Positions 36,859 through 55,525 are shown, counted from the first letter of the stretch. The stretch: 64,000 nucleotides of DNA from Candidatus Hermodarchaeota archaeon (GCA_048885925.1 JBHLLG010000007.1:1-64000); one strand, 5' to 3'. The notes: generated by a model not told the origin, from the letters alone. Numbers and translations: made by a program.

Positions 36859-36873
36859 GTTTCAAAATTAAAC
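36859..36873. promoter_or_regulatory. Single 15-bp operator-like box upstream of vhuG
   Basis: GTTTCA-AAA-TTAAAC, one mismatch to the GTTTCA-N3-TGAAAC consensus. Confidence 0.55.
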
Positions 36874-37112
36874 ATAAATGGAGTAAAAACAAAAAAAAAG
36901 TTCAATTTCAAATTAATTTCTTAATATAACGAGAGATTTTCAAAAATTTTATCAAGCCTTAATTAATATAATTTTAAACTCCTTTAATAGCCAATCTATA
37001 AGCTTTGGCAGAAGTTTTATTAAATAAGTAATTACAATCAATGGAATAGAGATTTATTTTGCCAAATTTTTAAATTAAGTTTGTTTAATGATATAAACTT
37101 AATTACAAAAGA

Positions 37113-37685
37113 TTAAAAAGAACCACATCCATCACATTTTCCATCGAGAAAAGCGGCACAATCGCTACATATATTTTCACATTTTTCTTCTTGACTTTCT
37201 TGGCTGAAAAGATTAATTGGTATATACTTAGGGGTGATAAGTTCAGACACGAATATAGTGGCAGAGTGAAGTATTCCTTTTTTATTCGTAGGTCCACAGT
37301 AATTAATATATCTGTGAAGCACATCAATATTTTGGCCTATGACTCCTAATATTAAGTTATATTGACCTGTTACCTGAGCCAGTAAAAACACACGAGGGCA
37401 ATTTTGATAGGCTTTAATTATATTTTGCACTTCATCATAATTACTCATTTCGATTAGTAAAAATAGAGATCTATATTGAAGTGTATTGATATTTGTATTC
37501 GCTTGAACCTTTAGAACTCCTGAATCCTCTAACTTCGAAATTCTCTTTGCAATACCTGTATGACTCATAGTTTCATCACCAGATTTATATATTACTTTTT
37601 CTAAGTTTGTCAAACTTTGACGCCCTTCTTTGAACAATTCTAATAAAATCTGTTTATCAATATTATCTAATTGCATAGTTTTCAT
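37113..37685 (-). CDS. Lrp/AsnC transcriptional regulator with Cys-rich C-terminal tail (copy 1)
   Basis: LDNIDKQILLEL...KRISKLEDSGV HTH; VTGQYNLI; tail CENICSDC...CDGC. Confidence 0.9.
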   Translation of the reverse strand: MKTMQLDNIDKQILLELFKEGRQSLTNLEKVIYKSGDETMSHTGIAKRISKLEDSGVLKVQANTNINTLQYRSLFLLIEMSNYDEVQNIIKAYQNCPRVFLLAQVTGQYNLILGVIGQNIDVLHRYINYCGPTNKKGILHSATIFVSELITPKYIPINLFSQESQEEKCENICSDCAAFLDGKCDGCGSF

Positions 37686-38544
37686 ATTAAAACTAAATAT
37701 AATTAATTAGATCTTAATTACCAATTTTTAAAATTTGTCGTTTATAAAAAGTTAGCTTGATAATATTTCAAAATTTTATGTACGCTTTACATCTTTCTAT
37801 TAAGATATTTTATATTAATATTTACAACTTTAATTAAATTAAACAATAAATAATTAGTTTTCATGTATATAATGCCTTATCATCATTATTGTTTTTCTAA
37901 TTAATTAAGTAAATAATAGTTTACTTATTATATTTAATAAATATTAGGGGTTTTCAAACTGAAACTTTGAATAAAAAATCGTTGAAAAATGAAACTAAAA
38001 GGTAATGGAATAGTATAATTATTTGAATTCACAAAATATAATGAATCCTTTTTTATATTAACGTTTCTAATAATATAATTATGACTTTGGATCAAATTGA
38101 CAAACAGATTCTTAAAACTTTATTTGAAAATGGTCGCGAAAGTTTAAGTTCTTTAAGTAAAATTGTATTAAAGTCGAATCAAGAAACAATGAGCCATGCA
38201 GGTATTGCAAAGAGAATTTCGAAGTTAGAGGATTCAGGAGTTCTAAAGGTTCAAGGAAATATAAGTGCTAAGAGCTTAAATTATTACATTGCGTTTATTT
38301 TAATTGAAATGAGAAATTATAATGAAGTACAAAAAATTATTGATGCTTATGCAGAATGTCCCAGAGTATTTTTACTTGCTCACGTAGCTGGTCAATATAA
38401 CTTGATCTTTGGAGTAATAGGCCAAGATATTGATGTCTTACGCAGATATATTAATTACTGCGGACCTATGAATAAAAAAGGAATACTTCACTCTGCCACT
38501 ATATTCGTGTCTGAACTTATCACCCCTAAGTATATACCAATTAA
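37213..38544. repeat. Identical inverted blocks shared by the two Lrp paralogs
   Basis: 37213-37287 is the reverse complement of 38470-38544 (75 bp); 37502-37558 is the reverse complement of 38199-38255 (57 bp). Confidence 0.9.
37951..38019 (+). promoter_or_regulatory. Dual-box promoter of Lrp copy 2
   Basis: TTTTCA-AAC-TGAAAC (37951), GTTGAA-AAA-TGAAAC (37981), 17 nt, GTATAAT (38013). Confidence 0.65.
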
Positions 38545-38644
38545 GCTTTTTAGTGGTGAAAGCAAAGAGCATAAATGTGAAAATATATGTAAAGCATGTG
38601 CTGCCTTTCTTGATGGAAAATGTAATGGATGTGGTAACTTCTAA
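38081..38644 (+). CDS. Lrp/AsnC transcriptional regulator with Cys-rich C-terminal tail (copy 2)
   Basis: Paralog of 37113-37685; tail CENICKAC...CNGC. Confidence 0.9.
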   Translation: MTLDQIDKQILKTLFENGRESLSSLSKIVLKSNQETMSHAGIAKRISKLEDSGVLKVQGNISAKSLNYYIAFILIEMRNYNEVQKIIDAYAECPRVFLLAHVAGQYNLIFGVIGQDIDVLRRYINYCGPMNKKGILHSATIFVSELITPKYIPIKLFSGESKEHKCENICKACAAFLDGKCNGCGNF

Positions 38645-38687
38645 TATAGACCACAACATTGATCTTATATAAATTATATTATAATAA

Positions 38688-38755
38688 ACGGTGTTCTGAA
38701 ACTTTATTCAAAATAATGTCATATCTTGAAACTGAAAATTGAATTACTATTTAAA
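38688..38755 (+). promoter_or_regulatory. Dual-box promoter of the MarR-like gene
   Basis: ACGGTG-TTC-TGAAAC (38688), GTCATA-TCT-TGAAAC (38718), 17 nt, TTTAAA (38750). Confidence 0.7.
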
Positions 38756-38861
38756 ATCCTCACATTTCATAAAAATTAAAACGATATGCTTAATTTAATA
38801 AAAATAAAGATTTAGATTTTCGAATTTTAAATCTATTAGATGATAATAAAAAATTGTTTTA

Positions 38862-39107
38862 ATGATGTATTTAATAAGAGACTATTTGACAGAACAAAAA
38901 TTAATCTCATTACCTCCCTCGAGTAAATTTATTTTATATCTACTGAAAAGAAATGGACCGTTAACTCAAGAAGAAATTATGAAAAGATCGCTTCTACCTA
39001 GTAGGACAGTCGTTTATTCTTTAAAAAAATTATATGATCTAAATTTTATTAGAAAAAATGTTGATAAAAGAGATAAACGAATAAGATTTTATGAAATACT
39101 TATTTAA
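38862..39107 (+). CDS. Small MarR-like winged-helix regulator
   Basis: LPPSSKFILYLLKRNGPLTQEEI...LPSRTVVYSLKKL...DKRIRFY. Confidence 0.88.
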   Translation: MMYLIRDYLTEQKLISLPPSSKFILYLLKRNGPLTQEEIMKRSLLPSRTVVYSLKKLYDLNFIRKNVDKRDKRIRFYEILI

Positions 39108-39256
39108 CTTGTAATTTATCAGTGGAATCATGATCTCTTTATGCTTACATAACCTCTAATTCACAAAAAAATAGTTTAAAGCTCTAAAGTAAATAATTTT
39201 GCAAATCATATATCTTTTTATTCCATTAATTTCGATGAAATAATTTTACGATTTTA

Positions 39257-39342
39257 GTTTCAAATTGTGACAATAATTGAAAAATTATGGGAAATTGAAA
39301 CAATTCATGATTACATTGTTTAAATTAACCAGATAAGGTAAT
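39257..39342 (+). promoter_or_regulatory. Dual-box promoter of HxxCH protein 1
   Basis: GTTTCA-AAT-TGTGAC (39257), ATGGGA-AAT-TGAAAC (39287), 17 nt, TTTAAA (39319); core ATTGTTTAAATTAACCAGATAAGGTAAT nearly shared with the promoter at 47953. Confidence 0.72.
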
Positions 39343-39426
39343 ACTTAAAAAAGAAGTCACCTTTTTTTAAAATTGAAACATTAATTTAAATAAAAATTAA
39401 TAATCTAAAAATAAAAGGTTTATATT

Positions 39427-40104
39427 TTGAGAAAAACTAAAATTCTTTCACTATTGATTTTTTCAGCCTTACTTATAGGAATTATAGGTGTAGCTGTAGG
39501 TTATCAAGAATACATATATAGATGGGTTAATAACGGAGCAGGTGGAACTCATGGTGCATGCCATGATTCGACTAAGACTAAATCAAGTGTAAATGGAACT
39601 TTAGTATTGTCTATTAATGTAACAGGAGATTTATCCCCTTTACAACATTTTACCTTAGAGGTTGATGTTCTCAACTTTACAGAGGCTAATTTAGATCCTT
39701 ATGCAGGTAGATTTACTTTAGGTGTACCCGGATATCGAGGTGATAACGCATTATTTACATCATCAGTAGCTCATCAAACATTGAATAGAGGAGAACAAGT
39801 AGATAGTTATGGATCCTATGATCCTTCTGATAATGATAATAAATTTGATCTAATTGCCCCTAATAAAGCTGGAACATATGATCTTTATGCAGTAGCAATA
39901 GCAGGGATGAATCAAACGGACGCATCTTTCTACAATCTTACTTACGTTGAAGATTCAATTGAAATTACTGTTACAGGCTCTACTGGTACAGGTGCAGAAA
40001 CTATTTCGGGAGGAATTTTAACAATCGTTATTGGCAGCAGTGTTGCAGTAACATCTGTTTTAATATTAACAGTGAGAAAGCGAATGAAGAAAAAAGAATT
40101 GTAA
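39427..40104 (+). CDS. Exported, membrane-anchored protein with HGACH motif (putative single-Cys c-type cytochrome)
   Basis: Signal peptide, GGTHGACH (motif at 39550-39564), beta-rich domain with IAPNKAGTYDLYA, C-terminal TM and basic tail; directly upstream of ccmC. Confidence 0.7.
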   Translation: MRKTKILSLLIFSALLIGIIGVAVGYQEYIYRWVNNGAGGTHGACHDSTKTKSSVNGTLVLSINVTGDLSPLQHFTLEVDVLNFTEANLDPYAGRFTLGVPGYRGDNALFTSSVAHQTLNRGEQVDSYGSYDPSDNDNKFDLIAPNKAGTYDLYAVAIAGMNQTDASFYNLTYVEDSIEITVTGSTGTGAETISGGILTIVIGSSVAVTSVLILTVRKRMKKKEL

Positions 40105-40264
40105 ATTCAAAATACTAAATAAATATTATTTTTTTTTTATAATCTTAAATTTTAAAAGTTAAAAAAAATGTCTTAAATGTGAAAAATAGCAATACTCCTT
40201 ACAAACAAAAAGATTTGTCATTGTATTAAAATGTATCAGAATTATAATTATATAAAGCATTATC

Positions 40265-40996
40265 ATGAATATCCCAAAATTGTTACAGACTAATTTCCTT
40301 TTAATTATTTCATTAACAATTTTGATGATTAATTTTTTTCTTATTTTAATCTTGACTTCCTTTAATCTCATTGTATGGGGAAGTCCTAATCGAATAGTAT
40401 ATATCATTTTTTTTTATCATGTTTCTGGGGCTTGGCTTGCATATTTATCATATGGTCTAAGTTTACTATTTCATATTCTCTATTTGAAGAAACGAGAAAT
40501 AAACTGGAATCGGTTGGGCACCAATAGCATAATAGTTGGAGTGTTTTTTACAGCATTTACATTAATTACTGGATCTTTATGGTACAATGCTACTTCTGGA
40601 GATTATAACAATATTTACTGGCAATGGAGTGATGGTAGACAAACTATGACTTTAATATTGCTTCTTTGTTATTTAGCATATTTAATTTTTAGGAGTATGA
40701 TTGAAGATAAAGAAAAAAGAGCAAAATTATCTTCAATTTTAGGTATTACTTTATTTCCTACAATACCCTTAAGTTATTTCTCGGCAATCATATTTACAAG
40801 CTTGCATCCCCTAATTAATCCAACTCCTGGAGAGCCAGGTAATATTTATTGGGACCCCGTGAAATTATTCATGTTAATTTTTAATTTGATTGGAATAACC
40901 ATCTTATTTTTTTATGTTATTCAAAGATTAGGAGAATTAGATAAAGCAAAAGAAAAACTAGATAAAACTATACAAAAAAGGTTGATAGAGGAGTAA
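40265..40996 (+). CDS. ccmC: Cytochrome c maturation heme chaperone CcmC
   Basis: IIFFYHVSGAW (His), ITGSLW...YWQWSDGRQT (WWD-like), SLHP (His). Confidence 0.9.
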   Translation: MNIPKLLQTNFLLIISLTILMINFFLILILTSFNLIVWGSPNRIVYIIFFYHVSGAWLAYLSYGLSLLFHILYLKKREINWNRLGTNSIIVGVFFTAFTLITGSLWYNATSGDYNNIYWQWSDGRQTMTLILLLCYLAYLIFRSMIEDKEKRAKLSSILGITLFPTIPLSYFSAIIFTSLHPLINPTPGEPGNIYWDPVKLFMLIFNLIGITILFFYVIQRLGELDKAKEKLDKTIQKRLIEE

Positions 40997-41158: not shown

Positions 41159-41506
41159 ATGATGAATATGAAAAAAACAAAAATTATTGCAATCACAGGA
41201 ATTATTATATCAATTATTGTTATAATTACGTTGCTTACATCAACTGCACGTCCTTATCTCACAGTCTCTCAAGTTGCCTTGAACCCTTCCAAATATGACA
41301 ATAAAGAGATTCAAGTTATAGGTGTTGTACAAGGATTTGCTGGAAGTAATTTTAATTTAACTGAAAATGGATATAGTATTTATATAGATATAAATAGTTT
41401 AACTCCTTCAACTGATATGGAAAATGGAATTCAAGTTGTTGTAAAAGGAACATTTAGTTCATCTCTGGTTTTAATCGCAAACCAGATTCTTACACAGTGT
41501 AGTTAG
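41159..41506 (+). CDS. ccmE: Heme chaperone CcmE, Cys-type, ending CS-stop
   Basis: N-terminal TM, PYLTVSQV, IQVIGVV, GIQVVVKG, LIANQILTQCS*. Confidence 0.85.
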   Translation: MMNMKKTKIIAITGIIISIIVIITLLTSTARPYLTVSQVALNPSKYDNKEIQVIGVVQGFAGSNFNLTENGYSIYIDINSLTPSTDMENGIQVVVKGTFSSSLVLIANQILTQCS

Positions 41507-41513
41507 ATCTTAT

Positions 41514-42239
41514 TTAATCATACAAAAGAGCACCTGAAGTTAATGCTATAATTGAGCTCATTAGAATTATATGTGCACCAAAAAATAGTACTTCGTAATA
41601 TAGATTTGATATTAATTCTCCTTCTAAAATTTTTATATTTATCGATATTATGGGAGTAATAATTGGTAGAATTAAAGGAAAAAATAAAATTGGTAAAATA
41701 AAGGATTTATTTTTAACATACATCGAAAAGGCAGAAACAAAGCTCCCACATATAGATAAATCAAATGTGGGTAATAATATTCCAAGACTTATATAAATTA
41801 ATAACTGATTCGTATTAAAATTGCTAATCGATGGTGCTGATATAAAAAAACTGAAAAGAAATAAAATAATCTCAACGAAACTCAATAAGATAAAGCAAAA
41901 AAAGGTTTTACTAATAAGAATTAAGTTTGCTGATACGGGGGAAGAAATAAGTCCTCCTAATGTTCCAGAATCTTTCTCCTTTACAAAGAGTTTAGTCATA
42001 ATATAAACAAGTGTAAAAAAAATTATAAGCCAGTTTTCAATAACAAAAATTTCCATAGGCATATTCTGATATTGAGTTCCGAAATTATAAACTGATGAAA
42101 ATATGAAGATTGAAATTATATCAAAAAGAAAAATTGAAAATAAATCATTAATTTGTCGAAGTTCTGATTTAAGATCTTTAAATAATATTACTTTCAGCAA
42201 CTTTAACTTTGATTTGAATTTTATTTTCTCATTTTTCAA
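41514..42239 (-). CDS. ccmB: Heme exporter permease CcmB
   Basis: KDLKSELR, FVKEKDSGTL, ILPILFFPLILP. Confidence 0.88.
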   Translation of the reverse strand: MKNEKIKFKSKLKLLKVILFKDLKSELRQINDLFSIFLFDIISIFIFSSVYNFGTQYQNMPMEIFVIENWLIIFFTLVYIMTKLFVKEKDSGTLGGLISSPVSANLILISKTFFCFILLSFVEIILFLFSFFISAPSISNFNTNQLLIYISLGILLPTFDLSICGSFVSAFSMYVKNKSFILPILFFPLILPIITPIISINIKILEGELISNLYYEVLFFGAHIILMSSIIALTSGALLYD

Positions 42240-42251: not shown

Positions 42252-42965
42252 CTAAAAATATGACTTAATTTCATATTCATTTAATTCCTCACGTGAAAAG
42301 GTTTTACTGATTCTTCCTTTTTTTAAAATGATTAAATCATCACAAAGTTGTTGGAATACATCAATTTTATGAGTTGTAAGAATTATTGATATATTTTTAT
42401 CATTTTTTAATTCTCTAAAAAAATTAATTAACATTTGGGTTGCATTGTAATCTAAACCCGAAAATGGCTCATCCAAGAAGAGGATTGGTGGATCATGTAT
42501 TAACACTCTAATTAATTCTACTTTTTGTTTCATTCCATGAGATAAAATTCTAACAGGTTCGTTGATCCAATCTGTTAAGTTGAATTTATTGCAATAATGC
42601 TTAATTTTAGTCTCAAGATTCTTTTTCTCAAAATTCAAATGCAAATTAGCATAATATTTTAAATTTTCAAAAATAGTTAATTCTTGAAATAGAAAAGACT
42701 CATCAGTATTAATTCCAATATTTTGTTTTATAATGTCAGAATTATCCTCATAATTCATTCCATTTAGTATAATTTCACCTAATGTTGGTTTGAGCAATCC
42801 CGATAAAATCTTAATTAATGTTGTTTTACCTGCTCCATTTGCCCCCGCAATTCCAAAAATCGTATTTTCTCTAATTTTAAAAGAAATTTTTCTTAACGCA
42901 AAAAAATATCCAAATTGTTTTGCAACATTATTGCAAGTTATTATGGTGTTATTTGATATGAACAT
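42252..42965 (-). CDS. ccmA: Heme exporter ATPase CcmA
   Basis: GANGAGKTT, LSHGMKQK, LDEPFSGLD, TTH; directly upstream of ccmB. Confidence 0.88.
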   Translation of the reverse strand: MFISNNTIITCNNVAKQFGYFFALRKISFKIRENTIFGIAGANGAGKTTLIKILSGLLKPTLGEIILNGMNYEDNSDIIKQNIGINTDESFLFQELTIFENLKYYANLHLNFEKKNLETKIKHYCNKFNLTDWINEPVRILSHGMKQKVELIRVLIHDPPILFLDEPFSGLDYNATQMLINFFRELKNDKNISIILTTHKIDVFQQLCDDLIILKKGRISKTFSREELNEYEIKSYF

Positions 42966-43121: not shown

Positions 43122-44840
43122 TTAGGCCTCAATTATTTTTTTCGTTGGAAAAAAAGTGATAAGAATTGAAGGAATTATTCCTATTAATAGTAGTATGAAT
43201 CCTGGAATGAAAAAAATATCTTGATAATTCGAATTCATTAAAAATCCAGCAAGGATTAAGGAGATCCCTGCATGAATTATTGTTTTTGAATTCAATCTGA
43301 AAAAGTATTTTACTCCCTTTTTCATATTGAAATTTTTTATCAATTTGAATAGGGATGAAAATAACGATATCAAATAAATAAATAAAACAGGATTTATCCA
43401 TATGTTTGAGGTAATTACAAGTATAAACGAAAGTACTGATTGAATTGAAAATCCTATAAGTATAACTAATCCTATCCATTTAATCTCGAAATATTCCCAT
43501 AAGGAGCAAAAAGTAAGCGATAACGCTAAACCAGTAGCTAATATTAATGTTGTAATTATATAATAATCTATTTCAATTAAAATAATATCTAAAGGAAGAA
43601 AATTTGAGAGGATATAGGTAAAAGGGGGAACAAATAAGCCAAAGGTACATACAAAAGCTAAACCAAACAAAAATAAATAACTAAAATAATCAAATAGTAA
43701 CTTTTTATTTCGATATTCCTCCATCAAATAATCTAGGACAATATAAATAACATAAAGGGAAAAAATGATTAATATAAGACCTAAAACTACTACCCATATA
43801 ACTAGCTCTGCACCTTCAGCAAACGCATGAGCCGAACTTAACCCTCCTCCCCTTGTAATCAATGTTGAAAAAACGATTGAAGAAAAAATTAAACCCACAT
43901 TAATGTTAATCAATTTAGGATTTTTTTTTTTAAAAATCATAGTATGAAAGAAAGCTGTTATGAAAAACCACGGAATAAGTGAAACAGTCTCAACAGGATC
44001 CCACCCCCAATATCTACCCCAAGGAGTCAAGGCAATTTTAGCCCAATATGCACCTAATCCAATACCTAAAGAGAGAACTAACCATCCAAATTTTAACGAA
44101 AAAGTATAGAAATCCTGTTGATAGGTTCCTAATAATTTTTCTTTCCGAGTAATTGTTTCAGCAATTGTAATTGTAAAAGGAATCAAGAAAATAGCATACG
44201 CAATAAATGTAAAAAATGGATGCCATATCATAAATGGAGATATTAATAATGGATTTAACCCTAAACCATTAGGGAAATCAGGGGGTGAATTAATTTGAAA
44301 TGGATTCAATGAAAATAAAACAATCAAAAATATAATTGAAATAATTATTGAAATGATAACAGAACGTATAAAAACTAAATCTTCTCTATTTTGATTCTTA
44401 AGTCTATATAAACTAATTATTATTGAATTAAAAACCATCCATGTCATAATCGAACCATCTTCTCCTGCCCAGATTGCAACAATTTTATATATTAATGAAA
44501 GTGTAGAATTGCTATAATTCATAACATATACTATTTCATAAATATTATTAAGAAAACTATACATCATTAATATAAACATAAATATTGTTAAATACACGTT
44601 AAAGAGAGAAAAGATATAATAATTTTGACGTTTAAAAACTATATAAACAAAATCAATAATCAATACGAAAATAAGAACCAATATAACATAATTACCTAAG
44701 GTTGATATGAGAAGAACTCTAAAATTATATTCAATCAGATTTAAGACTAATGGTAGAATAAAGATTAATCCTAAAATTATTCCAATGTTAATAATAATAG
44801 ACTTTTTTATTGACAATTCATCAAACTTCATATTTTTCAC
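43122..44840 (-). CDS. ccmF: Cytochrome c heme lyase CcmF
   Basis: WAGEDGS, GLGLNPLL, WHP, WGRYWGWDPVET (WWD), FFH, TRGG...SAHAF. Confidence 0.93.
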   Translation of the reverse strand: MKNMKFDELSIKKSIIINIGIILGLIFILPLVLNLIEYNFRVLLISTLGNYVILVLIFVLIIDFVYIVFKRQNYYIFSLFNVYLTIFMFILMMYSFLNNIYEIVYVMNYSNSTLSLIYKIVAIWAGEDGSIMTWMVFNSIIISLYRLKNQNREDLVFIRSVIISIIISIIFLIVLFSLNPFQINSPPDFPNGLGLNPLLISPFMIWHPFFTFIAYAIFLIPFTITIAETITRKEKLLGTYQQDFYTFSLKFGWLVLSLGIGLGAYWAKIALTPWGRYWGWDPVETVSLIPWFFITAFFHTMIFKKKNPKLININVGLIFSSIVFSTLITRGGGLSSAHAFAEGAELVIWVVVLGLILIIFSLYVIYIVLDYLMEEYRNKKLLFDYFSYLFLFGLAFVCTFGLFVPPFTYILSNFLPLDIILIEIDYYIITTLILATGLALSLTFCSLWEYFEIKWIGLVILIGFSIQSVLSFILVITSNIWINPVLFIYLISLFSSLFKLIKNFNMKKGVKYFFRLNSKTIIHAGISLILAGFLMNSNYQDIFFIPGFILLLIGIIPSILITFFPTKKIIEA

Positions 44841-44929
44841 CTAAAATGAAAGAATATAAAACTTTAAATAAAGATTTTTGAAATATTTCATGACCTAATT
44901 AAAAATTCTTTAAAGATTAAAAAAAAAGT

Positions 44930-47797
44930 TTAAGGAATAAATCTCTTCTTCTTCGAAGTTCTTACTATTAATACTATTCCCACAACTATAATACCGATTG
45001 TACTAGAATATATTATTAACTCATTTGTTTCTATTATTATCAAAGGATTAATGTTAGTTGATTTATCTGTAACCATAATGCTCTCAAGATAAGAATTCCA
45101 ATTATTATTAATGTCCTTTGCATGAATAGTAAAGAATAATTCTCCTGTATTACTTGGAGTCCAATTAATGTATTCCCAAGTATCTCCAAGTATATTCACC
45201 ATAGTATGGTTAAAACCTTCAAATTCAATGAAAACTTCACTGACACCAGAAAAATCGATAAGTTGTACTTGAATAGATACAGATTGCCCTAGAGTAATAG
45301 ATTCTTCTGATTTCACCAGATTATAAAAATTTGGACCTGTCATATCTTTAATAGTAATGTTATCCTTTAATGAACCAATATTATTAATAGAATCAAATGC
45401 AAAGATCTCATAGATTTTTAGACCTGTATTATTTGAAGTCCATATATTGCTTTGCCAGGTAAATCCTCCACTGAATGTCATTGTGTAGTTAATCTCTTCA
45501 ATTTCTAATAATACTAGAGTTATTGGAGAAAAATCAGTAACATCTACTTGAATTATTGGCGTATTTCCTAATTCTAATGGATCAGTAATTTCAATTAAAT
45601 TTGTTAATTTTGGACCAATTGTATCGATAACAGTAAGGTTATTATTTATGGAATTATAATTCTCATTTGAATCTTTGGCGTAAATAGAATAATTTTTTAT
45701 TCCAACAGATTGAGGAATCCAAGTATTATATTGCCAAATTGTACCTCCTATATTTGTCATCGTATAATTGCTCCCATCAATTTCTATAGAAACCAGTGTG
45801 ATAATTGAAAAATCTGTAGCATTAATTTGAATAATTGCTGTTTGTCCTATTTCTAATGGATCATAGTTTTCGTATAAGTTTGATAACTTTGGTGCTATAG
45901 TATCGATTGTTTCAATAAATCCACTTGTACTATTCCAAATATTGGAATTATCTTTAATATAAATGGTATATGTATGCATATCGACTATACTGGGCTTCCA
46001 AGTATCATATAACCACGTATTTCCTCCAATATAAGACATTGAATGATTCACACCTTCAAATTCAATTTTAACCTGGTTAATACCTGAAAAGTCTTTAGCA
46101 TCAATCGAAATCATAACTGAATTACCCAATTCGAGAGGATCACTACTTTCTGTTAAATTTTCAAAAATGGGCGGAGTTGTATCTAAAACCAATATATTAT
46201 CACTAATTTGATTCCAATTATTTAAAGAATCATTCGCAAGAATTTTAAACACTTTTATTCCAGTTGAAATTGGTGTCCACGTATATTCGTATCTAATAGC
46301 TCCAACTTTCACCATTGTATGATTTATTCCTCCAATTTCGAAAAATACTTTACTTACTCCATCAGCATCTTCAATATCAACTTGAATAGTTTCGGGTTGA
46401 CCTAGTTCTACGGATTCAGCACTTTTTGATAAGTTTTGAATTATTGGTCCTGATGATAGAATAACTTCAATAGAACCTATAGTCATGTTTAAATTATTGT
46501 TATTATCAATCATGTAAATAGAATAATTATAAATCCCTATAGATGCTGGCTTCCACTGAGACCATCTCCACGTATTACTTCCAATAAAAATCATAGTGTG
46601 ATTAACATTATTATATTCAAGAAATACATCTTTTACTCCAGAGCCTGGCGAATCATAAACCGTAATTGTTATAGTTTCGTTATTCCCTAATGGGAGAGGA
46701 TCAGCACTTTCAATTAAAAAATCATATTTTGGTGCTATTGTGTCAATTACAGTAATATCACTACTAATAGAGTTCCAATTTCCTTCGATATCATTAGCAT
46801 AAATTGTATAAGATTTTAACCCCATACTTATTGGTATCCAACTATTGTATTCCCAGGTTGAACTACCAATTTTCGTCATTGTATTATTAACATTATTGAG
46901 TTCTATTAGAACGGAACTAATTCCTGATAAGTCAGAAACATTAATTTGAATAGTTTCTGTTTGACCTAGTTCTAAAGGATCAGCACTTTCAATTAAATTT
47001 GAGAATGCTGGAACTGTAGTATCAATTACATTAATATTTCCAATAATCGAATTCCAACTTCCATCAGTATCATTTGCATAAATTTTGTAACTTTTGATAC
47101 CAATTGTATTTGGAGTCCAATTAAATTCATATGTATTGCTTCCAATGTTTGACATTGTATAATTATTACCTTCTAACTCAATCAAAACAGTATCGACACT
47201 CGTTTCAGCGTCTATTACATCTATTTGAAAGCTTTCTTGCCCTCCTAGTTCTAGGGGATCACTGCTCTCTAGAAGATTATTAAATTGAGGTGGTAAGTTT
47301 TGTACTTGAACATTTAGTATTAAATCTCCATGCGTAAAATATGAAGCAGAACCCCCTGCTCTGTATATTGCATCAGCGTGGAGAGTATAAGTTTGTTCAA
47401 CAGAGGGAGCAGTAACTTGAAAGTTTAGAACTATAGAATTACCAGAACTATCTATGGAAACTGATTGTTGAGTTGTAACAAAAATAAAATCTTTATTATC
47501 AGCTCTGCCTGGACTACCACTTGGAAATCCTGCCTCAATATTGTTTCCCTGTGCTTCTGTAAAGCTTATTATTTGAATGCTAACTGTAAAAGTTTCGCTC
47601 GGATTGATAGTAGTTCCCGAACTTGATAAAAGCGTGATATATCCTGTGGTACTCTGTGTAATATTTCCATGACAACTACCATGACCTTCACCAGAAAAAT
47701 CATTAAAATCTTCTGTTCTAGCTAAAGCAAAACCTAGAATTAAAAAAACCAGTATAATTGTGATTAAACCAGATGACATTTTTTTATTTATTCTCAT
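44930..47797 (-). CDS. Surface protein: HGSCH head domain on eight ~94-aa Ig-like repeats with a C-terminal TM anchor
   Basis: Signal peptide, GEGHGSCH (motif at 47669-47683), VTAPSVEQTYTLHA, eight repeats of ESxDPLELG-like...YTIYAND...WN, TM plus KKKR. Confidence 0.8.
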   Translation of the reverse strand: MRINKKMSSGLITIILVFLILGFALARTEDFNDFSGEGHGSCHGNITQSTTGYITLLSSSGTTINPSETFTVSIQIISFTEAQGNNIEAGFPSGSPGRADNKDFIFVTTQQSVSIDSSGNSIVLNFQVTAPSVEQTYTLHADAIYRAGGSASYFTHGDLILNVQVQNLPPQFNNLLESSDPLELGGQESFQIDVIDAETSVDTVLIELEGNNYTMSNIGSNTYEFNWTPNTIGIKSYKIYANDTDGSWNSIIGNINVIDTTVPAFSNLIESADPLELGQTETIQINVSDLSGISSVLIELNNVNNTMTKIGSSTWEYNSWIPISMGLKSYTIYANDIEGNWNSISSDITVIDTIAPKYDFLIESADPLPLGNNETITITVYDSPGSGVKDVFLEYNNVNHTMIFIGSNTWRWSQWKPASIGIYNYSIYMIDNNNNLNMTIGSIEVILSSGPIIQNLSKSAESVELGQPETIQVDIEDADGVSKVFFEIGGINHTMVKVGAIRYEYTWTPISTGIKVFKILANDSLNNWNQISDNILVLDTTPPIFENLTESSDPLELGNSVMISIDAKDFSGINQVKIEFEGVNHSMSYIGGNTWLYDTWKPSIVDMHTYTIYIKDNSNIWNSTSGFIETIDTIAPKLSNLYENYDPLEIGQTAIIQINATDFSIITLVSIEIDGSNYTMTNIGGTIWQYNTWIPQSVGIKNYSIYAKDSNENYNSINNNLTVIDTIGPKLTNLIEITDPLELGNTPIIQVDVTDFSPITLVLLEIEEINYTMTFSGGFTWQSNIWTSNNTGLKIYEIFAFDSINNIGSLKDNITIKDMTGPNFYNLVKSEESITLGQSVSIQVQLIDFSGVSEVFIEFEGFNHTMVNILGDTWEYINWTPSNTGELFFTIHAKDINNNWNSYLESIMVTDKSTNINPLIIIETNELIIYSSTIGIIVVGIVLIVRTSKKKRFIP

Positions 47798-47952: not shown

Positions 47953-48039
47953 ATTACCTTAAACTGGTTATTTTAAACAATCGATTGATATTGTGTTTCA
48001 TTTTCTGACTGTTTTTCTTTTTCAGTTTCAAATTGAAAT
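47953..48039 (-). promoter_or_regulatory. Dual-box promoter of HxxCH protein 2
   Basis: + strand GTTTCA-AAT-TGAAAT (48025), GTTTCA-TTT-TCTGAC (47995), 17 nt, TTTAAA (47972-47977); minus-strand core ATTGTTTAAAATAACCAGTTTAAGGTAAT. Confidence 0.72.
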
Positions 48040-48383: not shown

Positions 48384-49226
48384 ATGAAAAAGAAAATTCT
48401 TTTATTTTTAATTATTGTCAGCTTAATGCCAATTTTAGTAATCTCTTTCGGAACAAGTAGACCTGGTTATGGTGATACTCATGATGTTTGCCATGATACA
48501 GCGGGATATACAATTGATACTACTGCTTTAGAAGAGATTCCAGCAATCATATCATCAAATGTTATTTTTAATATTACGGCAACTGGATCTAATTTATTTG
48601 TTCAAGCAATATCTGGTGCTAAAGATAACGATCTCTTTGTAATATTACCAACAACAGATAGAATTAATGAAAGTTCTATTCATGATTTAGATCCAACTCC
48701 TAATTCAATTAAAGTTATATTTAACGTTACTACACCCTCAGAGGATGGTTATTACACAATTTTCATTATTGCAGGGAATGACGCAAGTGGACAAATAAAC
48801 TTCGCTTATCAACAGATCTATATTAATGTTGGGGGAGTTACAGCACCACGCCCTGTTTTTAATATTTTTGATCATTTTGGAATGTTTCTTGGTTTACCTG
48901 CATTAATTTTTCTGACACTAGGGACGATATTAGTATTAGTAAATGAAAGTAAATTTGTTAAAGTTCATGGGATTTTAGCAGGATCTTCTTGGATTTTAAC
49001 ATTAATAAATGTAGTAACTCTAGTAACAAAGAATCCGGCTATCTGGGTTGCATTTCCTTTAACTACACATTGGACTCACATTTTTTTAGGAGGTTTTGGA
49101 TTACTTACCGGATTATTTAGTATGTTTTTTGGAATTGCAGCAGAACGTAAACCAGCAAAAATAACGGGATATATTACATTGATTTGCTGGTGGGGAGCTT
49201 TCTTTTTTGGTTTTTTATTTATATAA
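48384..49226 (+). CDS. Exported HDVCH domain fused to a 4-TM cytochrome b561-like domain
   Basis: Signal peptide, GDTHDVCH (motif at 48480-48494), VTTPSEDGYYTIFI; TM histidines in FDHFG, KVHGIL, WTHIFLG. Confidence 0.68.
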   Translation: MKKKILLFLIIVSLMPILVISFGTSRPGYGDTHDVCHDTAGYTIDTTALEEIPAIISSNVIFNITATGSNLFVQAISGAKDNDLFVILPTTDRINESSIHDLDPTPNSIKVIFNVTTPSEDGYYTIFIIAGNDASGQINFAYQQIYINVGGVTAPRPVFNIFDHFGMFLGLPALIFLTLGTILVLVNESKFVKVHGILAGSSWILTLINVVTLVTKNPAIWVAFPLTTHWTHIFLGGFGLLTGLFSMFFGIAAERKPAKITGYITLICWWGAFFFGFLFI

Positions 49227-50858: not shown

Positions 50859-52199
50859 ATGAATGAAAGTGAAGAAGCATCAGATTTAAAAGATGTAATT
50901 ACTTCAGGTCCTCCAGTTGCAGGATTAGTTGCTCCTTCTAGAGAAAACCTCATTAAACCCTCAACAAAGTTGAAGGATAAATACTCATATGAGCGTTGTA
51001 CCCATTGTGGATATTGTCGTCATGTTTGTAAGGTGTATAATGTATCTTGGAGTGAAACGGATTATGCTGGTGGTCGTAATAGAATAATTAAAGCATTAGA
51101 TCGCAAAGATGTAAAATTTGATCGTGAAGAAATCATTCCTTCTGTTTTTCGTTGTATGTTATGTGGAAATTGCCAAGAAGTTTGTCCAGTTGGAGTTGAA
51201 ACTTTGAGTGTTTTTCAACACTTACGCAAACAAGTTGTTAAAAAGGGAGCTATACCCGCAAAGTTAAAAATCCTTAAAAATTCGATATTAGAAAATAACA
51301 ATCCCTTCCTTGAACAACATGTAGATCGATTTAATTGGTGTGAATCATGTGAAGAAGGCGCAAGAGCATATTCACGCGCAAAAGATAAGTTTGATGCCTT
51401 AAAAGAAGAAAAACCTTATACTGTGGGTTATTTTGTCGGTTGCACTTCTTCTTACAGGAATAAAGAATTAGTTTCATCTACGAGTAAAGTTTTAGAGAAA
51501 TTGGGTATTGAGTTTGTTGTTTTTCCCGATGAACAATGTTGTGGTTCAGTTTTATTTCGAACCGGATTAGAAAATGCCGCTCTTAAACTTGTAAAACATA
51601 ACTATAAAATGATCCGTAAAAGTGGTGTAAAAGAAGTCGTATTTTCATGTTCTGGTTGCTTCTCGACATTTAATCTCGAATACTCACGATTAATCGATCA
51701 TCAACTTGAATTTAACCTTTACCATCTTACTCAATTCGTTTTGAAAACTGTGAAAGAAAAGAATCTTAAAATTAGATATACAAAACGTTCAAAAGATGAC
51801 CCATTACTTATTACATACCATGATCCCTGTCACTTAGGTAGATATTGTGGAGTTTATGAAGAACCCCGAGAACTAATAAAAATGATTGAAGGAGTAAAGC
51901 TTTTCGAGATGAAACATAACCGAAATATGTCTTGGTGTTGTGGTGCTGGAGGTGGTGTGAAAGCGCTTTATGGTGATATCGCAGTTGAGGTAGGTAGGGA
52001 TAGATTAAATGAAACTCGTGCTTGTATGATACGAATTCGTGAGGATCGTCTTAAAGAAGCGTTAGAAACCAGTGCCGAGGTTCTTGTCAGTTCTTGTGTT
52101 TTTTGTAAGAATAATCTATTCGAAGTAGCAAATGAAGATAATTCTCCAATAAAAGTTATGGACATTTCTCAACTTTTAGTCGATTGTGAATTTTATTAA
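50859..52199 (+). CDS. Fe-S oxidoreductase, GlpC/GlcF/HdrD-like (two [4Fe-4S] motifs + two CCG domains)
   Basis: CTHCGYCRHVC, CMLCGNCQEVCP, YFVGC, EQCCG, CSGC, YHDPCHLGR, CCGAGGG, SCVFC. Confidence 0.92.
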   Translation: MNESEEASDLKDVITSGPPVAGLVAPSRENLIKPSTKLKDKYSYERCTHCGYCRHVCKVYNVSWSETDYAGGRNRIIKALDRKDVKFDREEIIPSVFRCMLCGNCQEVCPVGVETLSVFQHLRKQVVKKGAIPAKLKILKNSILENNNPFLEQHVDRFNWCESCEEGARAYSRAKDKFDALKEEKPYTVGYFVGCTSSYRNKELVSSTSKVLEKLGIEFVVFPDEQCCGSVLFRTGLENAALKLVKHNYKMIRKSGVKEVVFSCSGCFSTFNLEYSRLIDHQLEFNLYHLTQFVLKTVKEKNLKIRYTKRSKDDPLLITYHDPCHLGRYCGVYEEPRELIKMIEGVKLFEMKHNRNMSWCCGAGGGVKALYGDIAVEVGRDRLNETRACMIRIREDRLKEALETSAEVLVSSCVFCKNNLFEVANEDNSPIKVMDISQLLVDCEFY

Positions 52200-52276
52200 A
52201 AAAATTAATGAATTTATCCCAAATCGTAAGATTTTCTCAAAAATATTCGATAATTAAATCATAATTATTTATTTCC

Positions 52277-52669
52277 TTACGTTTTATTTATTGGTTCAAA
52301 TCCAATAATGTGAGGAGAGTCAATAATTTTACCCTTTGCCCATACAACTTTGACTGTCATACCGATTTTTAAATTTTTTTTTGTTGTATTTAATATAGGC
52401 ATTATAATTGGAGTATCAGACTTATCAACTTGAACCAATCCATATAATTCTTTATTATGTTTGACTTCTTTTCTTTTTATTGAACTTCCCGAATTTATAT
52501 AATTTTTTAAAACGCCAGTCTCTGGTAATTCTATGAGTTCATCAGTATCTTCTAAACAATTTTGACATTTACTTTTAGGAGGAAAGTACACTTTTTTACA
52601 TTTAGAACATTTAGAACCATAAATTATCTTATCATCTAATCCGCTATAGAATTCCTTTAATATATACAT
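52277..52669 (-). CDS. DUF35-family Zn-ribbon/OB-fold protein
   Basis: GSKCSKCKKVYFPPKSKCQNC; LKIGMTVKVVW. Confidence 0.88.
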   Translation of the reverse strand: MYILKEFYSGLDDKIIYGSKCSKCKKVYFPPKSKCQNCLEDTDELIELPETGVLKNYINSGSSIKRKEVKHNKELYGLVQVDKSDTPIIMPILNTTKKNLKIGMTVKVVWAKGKIIDSPHIIGFEPINKT

Positions 52670-53001
52670 ATTTGTAGAAGATTAAGATAAACCTAAAGTT
52701 ATTTTGTTCAGAACATTAAAGACAATAAAAATATTAAAAAGTTTCGATCTTAAACTTTTATAATAATTTTTGTTTAAAGATAGGAAATCTACATGATTCT
52801 CATAGAACTTAAAAATAAATATTGTGATCTTTCTTTTCTTTATCTAGTAGCATTTTTTGTATATAAAAATAGGGAGTTTCATTTTTTTACTATTTAGAGA
52901 GATTTGCAAATTTGAATTGGGTTTTAATACAATTTCTGTTAGAGAAATTAAATAATTATTTTAAAACTTAGTTTTTCAATTGATTTAAGTTTACTAATTG
53001 A

Positions 53002-54987
53002 TTAAGGTATATATTGAAATTTATTTCCATCTAACTTCATTTCTTGATTAGATAATAACAATTTTATTGATTTAGGAAGATAAGAAATTTTATTACCAAT
53101 AAGAATTAACTTTTCAAGGAAATTCAGCAAACCAATTGAATTTGGAATCTTTTCCAATTGATTATCACTTAAATTAAAGATCCTAAGAGATGTTAATTTA
53201 CCAATGTTTTCAGGCAGAATTTCTAATTTATTATGAGAAACATCTAAAAATTCAAGTGAAGAAAGTGAGCATATTGAATCTGGCAATTTTTGTATTTTAT
53301 TATTATTTAAATTTAAGTATTTAAGCTTAAATAGAGATCCAATAGAATTAGGTAGTTCATCTATTTTATTCCAACCCAATTTCAGAATTTCTAGTGATTC
53401 ATGCAAACCTATAAATTCAGGAAGCATTTTAAGCTTATTATCTTCTAAACTTAATATTTTGAGGGATGAGATGGAACTTATTGAGCTAGGAATTTTTTCT
53501 AAATTATTATTATCTAAGTTAAGATTTTCAAGGGAATAGAGTAATCCAATTGACCGTGGAAGATTCTTTATTTTGTTATAGTTTAAATTTAATGATTTAA
53601 GATTTTTAAGAGCTCCTATCGAGGATGGAATTTTCTGAAAAGTATTTTTGCTAGCATTAAGTTCTTTTAATGATGTAAGACGCCCAATTGATATCGGGAA
53701 ATCGGATATATTATTTGTCTCTAAATTTAAATATTGGAGAGTCGAGAGGTTTCCTATTGAAGAGGGTAATTTGTATAATTTATTATAACTCAAATTTAAA
53801 GATTTTAACGCTTTAAGAGAACAAATAGATTTTGGGATAGTTTTTAAGTTGTTGTTTTTTAAATCCAAATGTTTTAAATGATCGAATGATCCTATTGATT
53901 CAGGAAGATTGCCTAGTCTACATCCTTTTAATATTAAAGAGCAAAGCGATTGGAAATATTTAATAAAATCTGTTATTACTGTTAAAGGTTCGTTTTCAAT
54001 ACAAATTGAAATAACTTCTCCCTTCTCTATATTATACTCGACAGAAGGGTATTTCTTTTTGAAAAAAGCCAAAGTTAAATAATTTCTTAGAATGTCTGAT
54101 AATTTGGAAACTGAAAAATTTTCGAGTTTTTGATGAAATTTTAATAATTCATTAATTGATGACCTATATTTTGTATCAGATATTTTATCAATTTGAGTTA
54201 TCAGAACATTCTTCGCAGTATTATTATTTAACCTTTCAAGAGCTTCTATTAATGCAATTGCATTTTTAAAGGTGAATTCATTCTTTAGAATCCATTCTAC
54301 TTTGAAAAATTCTATTTTCTTTAAATATTTTAAATTTTTTATTCCTATTATATCAGAACACTCTTCTAAAGATTCCCTATCACGCCAATTAATGATTTGA
54401 TTATCTACATTTGAAAAATCTAGATCAGTTATAAATCCATTTTCAATTCTATAATTTATTTTCTCAAATTTATTTTTCAATCTATTAATACTTATTAGAT
54501 TGATGAGTATTTCTACAAAATTCTCAGAGGAATTTTGTATAACTAAATTTTGAGTAGATAGGGGAATAGTTTCATTAAAGATTTTTTCATTAGATAGTTT
54601 TTTTATTTCATCCAATAATATCAAGATAATTTTATAATCTCTTATTTCCTCCAAAGATTTAATTATTATAATTAGACATTCATACGAAGATTCATGTTGA
54701 AGAGCCCAAATAAATGGATTTAAGGCTTTTTTGATGAATTTATCTTTTAATACTTGAGCTGCAGAATACCGTAAATTTTGATTTGATTCAGAGATTAATA
54801 TCTGTTCTAGAATTTTAAAAATTTTTGAATGTTTAAAATCGATTTTATTTAATGTATCAATACTAATTTTTCTAATTATATCATCATCGACATTTTCAAT
54901 TAGAGTAATTAACAAATCTATAGTTTCAATTTTACTTGTCTTTCCATTTATGAAATTTTCATAAATTTTTCTTGGCGTTAACTCCAT
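53002..54987 (-). CDS. HEAT-repeat + leucine-rich repeat protein
   Basis: N-terminal HEAT-like helices; about 13 tandem 23-aa LRRs of the form LPxSIGxLxxLxxLNLxxNxL. Confidence 0.92.
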   Translation of the reverse strand: MELTPRKIYENFINGKTSKIETIDLLITLIENVDDDIIRKISIDTLNKIDFKHSKIFKILEQILISESNQNLRYSAAQVLKDKFIKKALNPFIWALQHESSYECLIIIIKSLEEIRDYKIILILLDEIKKLSNEKIFNETIPLSTQNLVIQNSSENFVEILINLISINRLKNKFEKINYRIENGFITDLDFSNVDNQIINWRDRESLEECSDIIGIKNLKYLKKIEFFKVEWILKNEFTFKNAIALIEALERLNNNTAKNVLITQIDKISDTKYRSSINELLKFHQKLENFSVSKLSDILRNYLTLAFFKKKYPSVEYNIEKGEVISICIENEPLTVITDFIKYFQSLCSLILKGCRLGNLPESIGSFDHLKHLDLKNNNLKTIPKSICSLKALKSLNLSYNKLYKLPSSIGNLSTLQYLNLETNNISDFPISIGRLTSLKELNASKNTFQKIPSSIGALKNLKSLNLNYNKIKNLPRSIGLLYSLENLNLDNNNLEKIPSSISSISSLKILSLEDNKLKMLPEFIGLHESLEILKLGWNKIDELPNSIGSLFKLKYLNLNNNKIQKLPDSICSLSSLEFLDVSHNKLEILPENIGKLTSLRIFNLSDNQLEKIPNSIGLLNFLEKLILIGNKISYLPKSIKLLLSNQEMKLDGNKFQYIP

Positions 54988-55161
54988 TTTAAAAAAATTA
55001 AGATTTATTTTAGATTATTTTTTGCTTTATCAAGATCACTTTGAATATTCTTTGATCTCCTCTCCCCAAAAAAGAAAAAATATATTTTTAAATATCATTT
55101 ACTGCCAAAAACTGAACATAATCTGATTTGGTATAAATGTAAATTCAACCTTATTAATATC

Positions 55162-55362
55162 TTATCGCATTTCAACATTCAACAGATTAGAATAAACTTC
55201 TTTCCCGTTTTTCTTTGTAATGGAAAATTTTAAATGAGGTGTTCCTGCTAAGAGTAGTCTGAAATATTGATCAATATTTTCTTTTCCTTCAATATCGAAA
55301 TCAGGTACTGATATTTTTTCCTCTTGTTCATGTTTATCTTCTACTAATGATACTTCAACCAT
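55162..55362 (-). CDS. Small hypothetical protein under a dual-box promoter
   Basis: 66-aa ORF; AAAAGGT SD-like sequence and the regulon promoter upstream. Confidence 0.65.
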   Translation of the reverse strand: MVEVSLVEDKHEQEEKISVPDFDIEGKENIDQYFRLLLAGTPHLKFSITKKNGKEVYSNLLNVEMR

Positions 55363-55456
55363 ACATTTTCAACCTTTTATTTTAAATTATATTTAAATTT
55401 ATTACCTAGAATTAAGATCGAATGTATTATATATAAATTTATCTGTTTAACGTTAA

Positions 55457-55525
55457 TATAAACAACACAATCGACTCCAGTTTCAATTTGCCACAACATT
55501 ATATACAAAAGTTTAAATTTGAAAA
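55457..55525 (-). promoter_or_regulatory. Dual-box promoter of the 66-aa gene
   Basis: + strand GTTTAA-ATT-TGAAAA (55511), GTTTCA-ATT-TGCCAC (55480), 17 nt, TTTATA on the minus strand (55457-55462). Confidence 0.65.

Follow-up and report, generated by a model that had tools for sequence, protein, structure and literature searches.

Paired palindromic boxes at a fixed distance from TATA mark a conserved set of promoters beside cysteine-tailed Lrp-like genes in an Asgard archaeon

Five promoters in and around a heme-related gene island of an Asgard archaeon share one layout, which raises the question of whether they form a regulon and, if they do, which protein reads them. The island lies in a stretch of 64,000 nucleotides from Candidatus Hermodarchaeota archaeon (GCA_048885925.1 JBHLLG010000007.1:1-64000), hereafter the window, which is contig C7 of a 3.9-Mb assembly with 29% G+C and 95% completeness. 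The promoters, P1 to P5, precede the gene of a cysteine-tailed Lrp/AsnC-like protein (Lrp2), a MarR-like winged-helix gene, the genes of two surface proteins with an N-terminal xxxCH motif (Hx1 and Hx2) and the gene of a conserved 66-aa protein (p66), and in each of them two 15-bp boxes are followed by 17 nt and then by a TATA-like hexamer. This geometry is conserved in the lineage and is peculiar neither to one genome nor to AT-rich DNA. From sequence and from analogy with known archaeal regulators, we propose that the boxes serve as operators for a small regulon conserved in Lokiarchaeia-type Asgard archaea, bound by the Lrp proteins and likely activating, a reading to which we give about an even chance as a whole.

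The boxes follow the consensus nTTTCA-AWT-TGAAAC, and the TATA box is of TTTAAATT type. On the plus strand, P1 comprises the distal box TTTTCAAACTGAAAC (37951..37965), which is kept at the Lrp2 orthologues of 8/8 genomes, the proximal box GTTGAAAAATGAAAC (37981..37995), whose start is 30 bp from the distal start, and a weak TATA-like 8-mer, GTATAATT (hexamer GTATAA; 38013..38020), which in orthologues reads TTGAGGTT, TTTAGATT and similar. P2, also on the plus strand, has a degenerate distal box that retains the TGAAAC half alone (38688..38702), a proximal box (38718..38732) and, 17 nt past it, the TATA 8-mer TTTAAAAT (hexamer TTTAAA; 38750..38757). P3 is again on the plus strand, with its distal box at 39257..39271, its proximal box at 39287..39301, the TATA 8-mer TTTAAATT (hexamer TTTAAA) at 39319..39326 and a third box downstream of the TATA at 39365..39379, 78 nt from the proximal box start. 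The remaining two lie on the minus strand: P4, with distal box 48025..48039, proximal box 47995..48009 and TATA 8-mer TTTAAAAT (hexamer TTTAAA; 47970..47977), and P5, with distal box 55511..55525, proximal box 55480..55494, which is the top-scoring box of the genome, and TATA 8-mer TTTATATT (hexamer TTTATA; 55455..55462). Box starts are 30, 30, 30, 30 and 31 bp apart in P1 to P5, and the half-site next to the TATA is TGAAAC in 5/5. On re-reading of the sequence, all the coordinates that an earlier note had given for these five promoters were correct, as were its spacing of 30-31 bp, its 17-nt gap and proximal TGAAAC (each 5/5), and the presence of two lone boxes at 36859 and 39365. Contig C23 carries a sixth full site, between a third Cys-tailed Lrp gene (Lrp3) and a second MarR-like gene.

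At Lrp2 promoters there is also a second TATA-like element, TTAAATATAAAG, about 19 nt past the weak TATA (window 38040-38060, and likewise in genomes G015, G011 and G007). Either this element is an additional promoter, or it is the real one and Lrp2 then departs from the other classes in its distance from box to TATA.

How far is such a pattern beyond chance? Its single parts are weak. Genome-wide, TGAAAC alone occurs at compositional expectation (2771 copies), and the 17 occurrences of TGAAAC-N17-TTTAWA form no peak over spacings of 5-40 (mean about 10; N16 gives 18 and N25 gives 19). Box pairs with up to 4/12 mismatches in each box show no peak at 30/31 bp (120 and 110 against about 110), and those with up to 3 mismatches each show a weak one (7 and 4 against about 2.7). 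The genome-wide position profile of the TATA model upstream of crude open reading frame (ORF) calls has a weak, broad rise from -140 to -80, which leaves the TATA assignment unconfirmed by this measure. Counts of TGAAAC-N24/25-TGAAAC over 40 genomes did not separate regulator-bearing from regulator-free genomes, such per-genome counts being uninformative because conserved coding matches dominate them.

It is the combination of boxes, spacing and TATA that is decisive, and it lies far beyond chance. The composite string TGAAAC-Na-TGAAAC-Nb-TTTAWA has 6 exact matches on both strands of the genome over 1020 spacing cells, and a single cell, (24,17), takes 3 of them (P2, P4 and the C23 site), with three other cells taking 1 each. 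TGAAAC-N24-TGAAAC occurs in 7 copies, whereas the 55 other spacings average about 1.3 and reach 5 at most. When trained solely on 21 sites of other genomes, a composite model reaches at least 22 bits at 9 positions, equal to 6 distinct sites, among the 7.8 million positions of this genome. It recovers five of the six known sites (P5 at 51.3, P4 at 50.3, the C23 site at 47.7, P3 at 45.0 and P1 at 35.9 bits), and the only further site at this threshold is on contig C103, at 27.0 bits. P2, with its decayed distal box, is weak in this model (8.2 bits). Five genome-size simulations with a third-order Markov model gave 0-1 matches at 18 bits or more and 0 at 22 bits or more.

For conservation, we surveyed relatives by taking the best dual box up to 330 nt upstream of each orthologue, with no score threshold; since the relatives are kin, their counts do not amount to independent trials. 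Congeneric genomes keep both the Lrp pair and the island in synteny. Lrp2 promoters have a dual box in 8/8 genomes, 7 with a box start 100 nt from the ATG and one with a start at 147 nt (the instance in G014 is weak). MarR-like genes have it at 9/9 loci, 143-145 nt from the start, with a weak proximal box in two. The first xxxCH gene of the island carries it in 8/8 cases (7 in the survey, with G023 found separately), Hx2 in 4/4, and p66 in 6/6 (4 in the survey, plus G011 and G014), always with the 31-bp spacing of P5 in the last class. In the same islands, the dual box is absent from the promoters of Hx3 (0/7), CcmF (0/7), CcmC (0/7), CcmA (0/8), the FAD-binding oxidase (0/8), the hydrogenase (0/3), the leucine-rich repeat (LRR) protein (0/5) and the Lrp3-type genes (0/4). 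The proposal of a co-regulated promoter set therefore stands, given the same layout at orthologues in at least 8 genomes and its absence from neighbouring promoters.

Over the 27 sites so assembled, the boxes are spaced 30 bp apart in 17 and 31 bp in 10, and the gap from box to TATA is 17 nt in 27/27. Within promoter classes, identity is 0.84 and 0.80 for the two boxes, figures that are inflated by the selection of the sites with a box position weight matrix and to that extent count against us, and 0.85 for the TATA 8-mer, which was unused in the selection; it is 0.54 in the inter-box spacer and 0.55 in the 17-nt gap. Between promoter classes, boxes and TATA are 0.75-0.78 identical, against 0.42-0.46 elsewhere. 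The class-weighted consensus of the 27 sites is.TTTCAAaTTgAAAC for the distal box and GT...AAAtTGAAAC for the proximal one, and in full reads.TTTCAAaTTgAAACT - 15/16 nt - GT...AAAtTGAAACt - 17 nt ending in G - TTtAAAtTA.cca.

The same architecture was then sought near genes of the Cys-tailed Lrp family (Lrp-Cys), at 38 loci taken from species-representative genomes, 30 of which share no sequence with the training loci. A composite site of at least 18 bits lies within 1.5 kb of 33/38 loci, against about 0.07 expected, and of 25/30 independent ones, 15 of them directly before a MarR-like gene. When dual boxes at the 30 independent loci were scanned blind to the TATA, the best TATA offset was 17 nt in 16/25, and in 10/12 of the dual boxes with a good TATA. 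These results bear on a deflationary account in which the pattern arose by chance in AT-rich DNA or by recent duplication of a promoter segment. The genome does have 29% G+C, loosely defined boxes are common in it, and P3 and P4 share additional similarity past the TATA. The spacing-grid and simulation controls contradict this account all the same; boxes and TATA are kept, with diverged spacers, in at least 8 genomes and at 25/30 independent loci; and only boxes and TATA are alike between promoter classes. The conservation pattern largely refutes it, and we give next to no weight to it or to the companion idea, taken up below, that the Lrp pair are AhbA/B-type siroheme decarboxylases.

Which protein would bind these boxes? 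The nearest candidates are Lrp2 (187 aa; 38081..38644, plus strand), which is itself behind P1, and its divergently oriented, 75% identical paralogue Lrp1 (190 aa; 37113..37685, minus strand), which has no dual box in its own orientation. The closest solved sequence to the 187-aa protein is FL11/PH1519 (E 2e-9, with a phmmer alignment over residues 2-133). The helix-turn-helix (HTH) of Lrp2 matches HTH_24 at 26.3 bits (cut-off 21.9) and HTH_AsnC-type at 26.1 (just under its cut-off of 27), and that of Lrp1 matches HTH_24 at 18.5 bits, under the cut-off. The RAM domain is missed by Pfam, where AsnC_trans_reg scores 16-17 bits against a cut-off of 25. An AlphaFold2 model (mean predicted local distance difference test score 65, tail unmodelled) places three HTH helices at residues 5-51 and a beta-alpha-beta-beta-alpha-beta RAM domain in strands 69-77, 96-102, 105-114 and 135-143 and helices 80-89 and 117-127. 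The top Foldseek matches are nearly all Lrp/AsnC regulators (probability 1.0, template modelling (TM) scores 0.32-0.45), with a few non-Lrp folds lower down, and the NCBIfam matches are LysM, AsnC and Lrp, all far below the equivalog cut-offs. Judged by sequence comparison and structure prediction together, the 187-190-aa proteins are true Lrp-fold proteins.

Because a heme-synthesis enzyme, AhbA/B (PDB 4czd), counts among the fold matches of top TM-score (0.45), the domains of the Lrp proteins were checked for this identity. PF17805, the AhbA/B-type domain, has no match in them and is above cut-off nowhere in the genome, where its best score is 21.7 bits against a cut-off of 27, on contig C62. 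Their NCBIfam matches include no AhbA/B model and are led by the LysM, AsnC and Lrp regulators, phmmer gives FL11, and the 75% identity of Lrp1 and Lrp2 is to be set beside the pair of diverged subunits that characterises AhbA/AhbB.

The Lrp-Cys family is narrow and of rigid length. Among 26 sequences, M37, H39, G41, K44 and R45 are invariant, as are seven cysteines (C93, C127, C166, C170, C173, C181 and C184), of which two lie in the RAM domain (in CPR and CGP) and five form a C-x3-C-x2-C-x7-C-x2-C tail; the family includes Lrp3 on contig C23 (22870-23433, minus strand). The best match of the tail to PDB sequences, the eS27 zinc ribbon at E 0.13, is at chance level, and Atlas returned no usable match. 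The tail is probably a metal or Fe-S site.

The form of the boxes points toward the same family. Optima found for the feast/famine regulatory proteins (FFRPs) of archaea by SELEX have the form abcde-[AAT/ATT]-e'd'c'b'a' plus a fixed base at -1, for example GTTCGA[AAT/ATT]TCGAAC for FL10 (PMC2715240). According to a review (PMC2995911), the DNA sites of archaeal Lrp proteins are AT-rich at their centre and follow one another at intervals of two or three helical turns, and Ptr2 occupies a regularly spaced pair at its targets. The boxes described here are palindromes with an AAT/ATT centre, spaced three turns apart. The likeness to Ptr2 that the earlier note had drawn is apt on three counts: the FFRP operator form, the three-turn spacing and the invariant distance from proximal site to TATA. 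Given this operator form and the Lrp fold of the neighbouring proteins, binding by Lrp is the best reading, and we consider it probable that these proteins are the binders, whether or not they activate.

The main competitor for that role is encoded next door. The MarR-like gene behind P2 (81 aa; 38862..39107, plus strand) matches MarR_2 at 36.7 bits (cut-off 27) and MarR at 35.4 (cut-off 24.6), and its paralogue matches MarR at 48 bits. MarR-family proteins bind short palindromes too. The protein could recognise the boxes, autoregulate, and control Lrp2, the xxxCH units and p66, with the Lrp-Cys proteins as co-regulated partners or sensors. The dual box at 9/9 of its own genes, at a distance of 143-145 nt, would suit this, as would the 15 further loci where a site is followed by a MarR-like gene and the invariance, in 20 sequences, of R48, T49, D71, K72 and R73 of the recognition helix and wing. 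Where a genome has the Lrp3-MarR2 cassette only and is without Ccm genes, the MarR-like gene is nonetheless preceded by the site, and the genome G006, which is without the motif, is also without the MarR-like protein. On the other side, the 81-85-aa proteins match over residues 22-78, which fall on residues 42-95 of 153-aa chains, and have none of the N- and C-terminal dimer-interface helices of MarR proteins of about 140-150 aa (solved relatives have about 150 aa), so that dimer binding of a palindrome by them is unproven. Their best family matches, MsvR, Lrs14 and Sta1, are weak (E 1e-4 to 1e-3), and the combination of a 6 + AAT/ATT + 6 form with three-turn phasing is the documented operator signature of archaeal Lrp/FFRP proteins. 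G052 has the Lrp pair with a dual box between, and no MarR-like gene was found there, a weak point given that this genome is 84% complete. We regard the MarR-like protein as a serious rival for the role, and as rather unlikely to be the binder.

The distribution of these genes over the genus shows that the motif tracks the regulator cassette and not the target genes, with Lrp and MarR-like genes tracked together. Of 40 genomes, 14 have CcmF, 18 have Lrp-Cys and 13 have both, and five have the Lrp3-MarR2 cassette only. Every Lrp-Cys genome checked also has a MarR-like gene, except G052. G006 is the only genome with a Ccm/xxxCH locus, a diverged one, and no Lrp-Cys; it is without a MarR-like gene too, and the 34 kb around that locus contain neither a dual box nor any single box that reaches 12 bits. 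This co-occurrence, with the motif absent where both proteins are absent, argues against a further account, in which a transcription factor encoded elsewhere binds the boxes and both the Lrp-Cys and MarR-like genes are mere targets; so does the tight linkage, the distal box starting 31-47 nt past the Lrp stop codon in most cassettes. Such a factor would accommodate the Lrp-Cys loci with no nearby site (5/38). We hold this account to be improbable.

If Lrp proteins are the binders, do they activate? We infer that they do from the position of the boxes, the invariant gap, the degraded Lrp2 TATA and the precedent of Ptr2 and LysM. No box lies over the TATA, the transcription factor B (TFB) recognition element (BRE) or the start region at 4/5 promoter classes, and the 17-nt gap is invariant although the box-to-box distance is 30 or 31 bp. 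The TATA of several Lrp2 promoters is degraded (TTGAGGTT, GCGTAATT, GTATAATT), a weakening that fits activator-dependent promoters. For Ptr2, LysM and Ss-LrpB, activators that recruit the TATA-binding protein (TBP), the position of a dimer site immediately upstream of BRE/TATA is tightly constrained (PMC2995911).

The Cys-tailed Lrp proteins (Lrp1/Lrp2, and Lrp3 on C23), assembled as a dimer of dimers or a higher oligomer, would occupy the two 15-bp sites, which at three helical turns would lie on one face of the DNA. The proximal dimer, 17 nt upstream of the TATA, would most likely aid binding of TBP/TFB in the manner of Ptr2 and LysM, and the distal, more perfectly palindromic site would anchor the oligomer. 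Its targets would be Lrp2 itself, the MarR-like winged-helix gene(s), the xxxCH-led units with the Ccm genes that follow, and the gene of p66. A metal or Fe-S centre, probably held by the seven invariant cysteines, could couple the switch to a redox, iron or heme signal.

Several observations weigh against this proposal. As to the binder, 5/38 Lrp-Cys loci have no site within 1.5 kb; the Pfam scores of the Lrp domains lie at or below the curated cut-offs; and a 6-residue insertion precedes the recognition helix in these proteins, whose contact residues are unlike those of FL11. By published residue-to-base rules, Ser34 with Thr/Ala36 would suit T at positions a and b, a fit that the insertion limits. 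No promoter carries the motif more constantly than the MarR-like one, as would be expected of an autoregulated binder, and Lrp3-type and Lrp1-type genes lack a site of their own. As to the sign, about 10 nt separate the box from the presumed BRE, more than the few base pairs of Ptr2-type activators; most targets carry a consensus TATA, which has less need of activation; and Hx1-type promoters have the third box, 44-46 nt past the TATA start, with a strong copy in 4 genomes and a weaker one in 4 others. This third box would suit repression or dual control, by roadblock or by wrapping as in Ss-LrpB.

These last two points, the conserved place of the third box and the strong consensus TATA (TTTAAATT) at most targets, are also what favours the idea that the Lrp-Cys proteins bind but mainly repress or act dually, with an oligomer that bridges the upstream boxes, joined at Hx1 by the one past the TATA, and wraps the promoter until a signal at the Cys tail releases it. 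There is precedent for this in LrpA, FL11 and Ss-LrpB: archaeal Lrp proteins that wrap DNA can repress or, depending on their concentration, act in both directions (PMC2995911). An invariant 17-nt gap suits stereospecific contact with the basal factors and would be superfluous for simple occlusion, and the freedom of TATA, BRE and start region from boxes at 4/5 promoter classes and the weakened TATA of Lrp2 promoters likewise speak for activation. We think a mainly repressing or dual role unlikely, and keep Lrp-mediated activation as the working reading.

In the Hx1 leader (window 39327-39379 and orthologues) there is in addition a short inverted repeat, GCTT...AAGC in relatives and ACTT...AAGT here, with both sides changed, followed by a run of 5-8 T and then the third box. 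The repeat may be a hairpin with a T-run attenuator. RNAalifold gave no consensus structure for the 5' leaders of 12 Hx1/Hx2 promoters.

What, then, does the regulon include? The earlier note had spread it over the heme island. Units led by xxxCH genes do belong to it, and the CcmF, CcmC, CcmA, Hx3, FAD/CCG and hydrogenase genes are without a site in all genomes examined: the motif follows the xxxCH genes and not the Ccm genes. Gene order makes the same point. CcmF precedes Hx2 in G015, G011 and G007 (loci L031, L032 and L033), and Hx2 precedes CcmF in the window (43122-47797); the dual box stays with Hx2 despite the change, leaving CcmF upstream of the Hx2 promoter in those three genomes. The presumed operons of this genome contain gaps of 90-160 nt and therefore have space for internal promoters.

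Other candidate members fared less well. The box at 36859..36873, between Lrp1 and the hydrogenase small-subunit gene, exists as the earlier note had reported, and it is a doubtful member: both a partner box and a TATA at 17 nt are lacking, and it recurs in 1 (G011) of 3 other genomes where the region is readable. The C103 site has no clear downstream gene in matching orientation. A palindrome on C62 (11680-11694; L046 2681-2695) has no partner box and no TATA at 17 nt, and a dual TGAAAC shared by G018 and G020 likewise has no TATA at 17 nt. A box on C4, 219 nt upstream of a gene for a GAF-Lrp fusion, is absent at 4 orthologous loci. The candidates on C103, C62 and C4 and in G018/G020 were rejected as members.

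Some features of these places are recorded in their own right. The C62 palindrome is one of two exact GTTTCA-N3-TGAAAC matches in the genome and lies 128 nt upstream of the gene of a 670-aa SBBP beta-propeller protein; a small ORF just upstream of it has the weak AsnC-type ligand-domain match mentioned above (PF17805, 21.7 bits). The fusion protein on C4 (59081-60178, minus strand; L048 1582-2679) joins a GAF domain to an AsnC-type HTH over 365 aa, is 42% identical to Lrp2 and is kept in several relatives. Beside the Lrp3-MarR2 cassette, C23 encodes (24343-26220, minus strand; L047 5344-7221) a 4Fe-4S protein and, as a separate protein, a MerB (alkylmercury lyase) domain fused to a winged-helix-like N-terminus.

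The close protein relatives of the window are all labelled as metagenome-assembled genomes of Promethearchaeota or Lokiarchaeia. Between 34 and 57 kb the window encodes, among others, the large and small subunits of a NiFe-hydrogenase, the divergent Lrp1/Lrp2 pair and the MarR-like protein. Hx1 (39427..40104, plus strand), a surface-anchored protein, leads a presumably co-transcribed unit with CcmC, a 50-aa ORF and CcmE (41159-41506). On the minus strand Hx2, a 955-aa surface protein of immunoglobulin-like (Ig) repeats (44930..47797), is followed downstream by CcmF (43122-44840), CcmA (42252-42965) and CcmB (41514-42239). Beyond Hx2 come the third xxxCH protein Hx3 (48384-49226, plus strand), an FAD-binding oxidase, a CCG/4Fe-4S protein, a zinc-ribbon protein, the LRR protein and p66 (55162..55362, minus strand), which the LRR gene follows. 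For p66, Pfam, NCBIfam and Atlas gave no lead (Atlas scores under 0.9). Rfam had no family match in 36000-56500, and bacterial-type promoters and terminators in the region were not above shuffled counts. Genes outside the window rest on our own crude ORF calls.

The surface proteins were first described as bearing an HxxCH motif. It is really xxxCH: all orthologues of the three proteins (L031-L038, L054) retain Cys-His, at residue 34-42, just past the signal or anchor segment, but not the leading His, whose position varies among H, S, E, G, A, T and Y (HGSCH, SSGCH, ESGCH, GANCH, APGCH, TAGCH, YMGCH and others). We take this motif to resemble a single-cysteine heme c attachment site. CcmE ends in ...LTQCS, with a Cys near the C-terminus; in canonical CcmE, the heme-binding His stands at the position of that Cys. 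The Cys ending recalls the archaeal variant of System I. No CcmH, CcmG or CcmI was seen among the ORFs scanned. PF17805 is below cut-off throughout this 95% complete assembly, while a Ccm system and putative heme-binding proteins are present.

Taken together, the Lrp subfamily could be an Fe-S, redox or heme sensor and a Ptr2-like activator of a covalent-heme surface-protein module, in which a variant Ccm system would mature single-cysteine xxxCH motifs for redox-controlled extracellular electron transfer, and the MarR-like protein could be a second tier; this wider picture is speculative, and we lean against it as it stands. Asgard archaea are the closest prokaryotic relatives of eukaryotes, and transcription regulation in them is barely known. 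A full-text literature search, read at the level of its listings and outside subscription journals, found no description of an Asgard regulon, mapped promoter or Lrp operator. The present finding supplies a testable hypothesis, consisting of a 15-bp operator, a fixed operator-to-TATA geometry, two candidate regulators and about six target promoters per genome. It further connects a Cys-rich Lrp subfamily, hitherto undescribed, with genes that resemble covalent-heme cell-surface electron transfer, which bears on syntrophic electron exchange. If Lrp does act here like Ptr2, TBP-recruiting activation, the simplest analogue of eukaryotic activation, would extend to the Asgard lineage.

Measured against known systems, the proposed mechanism, with Lrp operators and a Ptr2-like upstream site, is familiar in kind; what is new is the subfamily of regulators with its Cys tail, the constant 17 nt between box and TATA, and the set of targets. 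The nearest parallels are Ptr2 of Methanocaldococcus jannaschii and LysM and Ss-LrpB of Sulfolobus, which likewise have two regular palindromic dimer sites upstream of the core promoter and small target sets, those of Ptr2 being electron-transfer proteins (fdxA, rb2, rbr; PMC2995911). The present case differs in its half-site sequence, in the 6-residue HTH insertion and 35-residue tail of its Lrp protein, the tail holding five of the seven invariant cysteines, and in its 17-nt gap between box and TATA, which leaves about 10 nt rather than a few bp to the expected BRE. Among small archaeal winged-helix regulators, the 81-85-aa protein matches the MarR/MarR_2 core over the Pfam cut-offs, with weak matches to Lrs14, Sta1 and MsvR; unlike MarR proteins, it is about half as long, lacks the dimerisation helices, and is always paired with a Cys-tailed Lrp gene and always behind a dual box. 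FL10 shares the 6+3+6 palindrome, the A/T centre and the outer GTT...AAC with nTTTCA-AAT/ATT-TGAAAC (PMC2715240). FL11 (PH1519) is closest in solved sequence and in fold, yet only about 26% identical, and the Lrp proteins described here read S-H-A/T-G-I-A at the contact positions 34-39. In contrast to the FL11 and FL10 FFRPs, no amino-acid effector is implied here, and the Cys tail is without a counterpart in solved structures.

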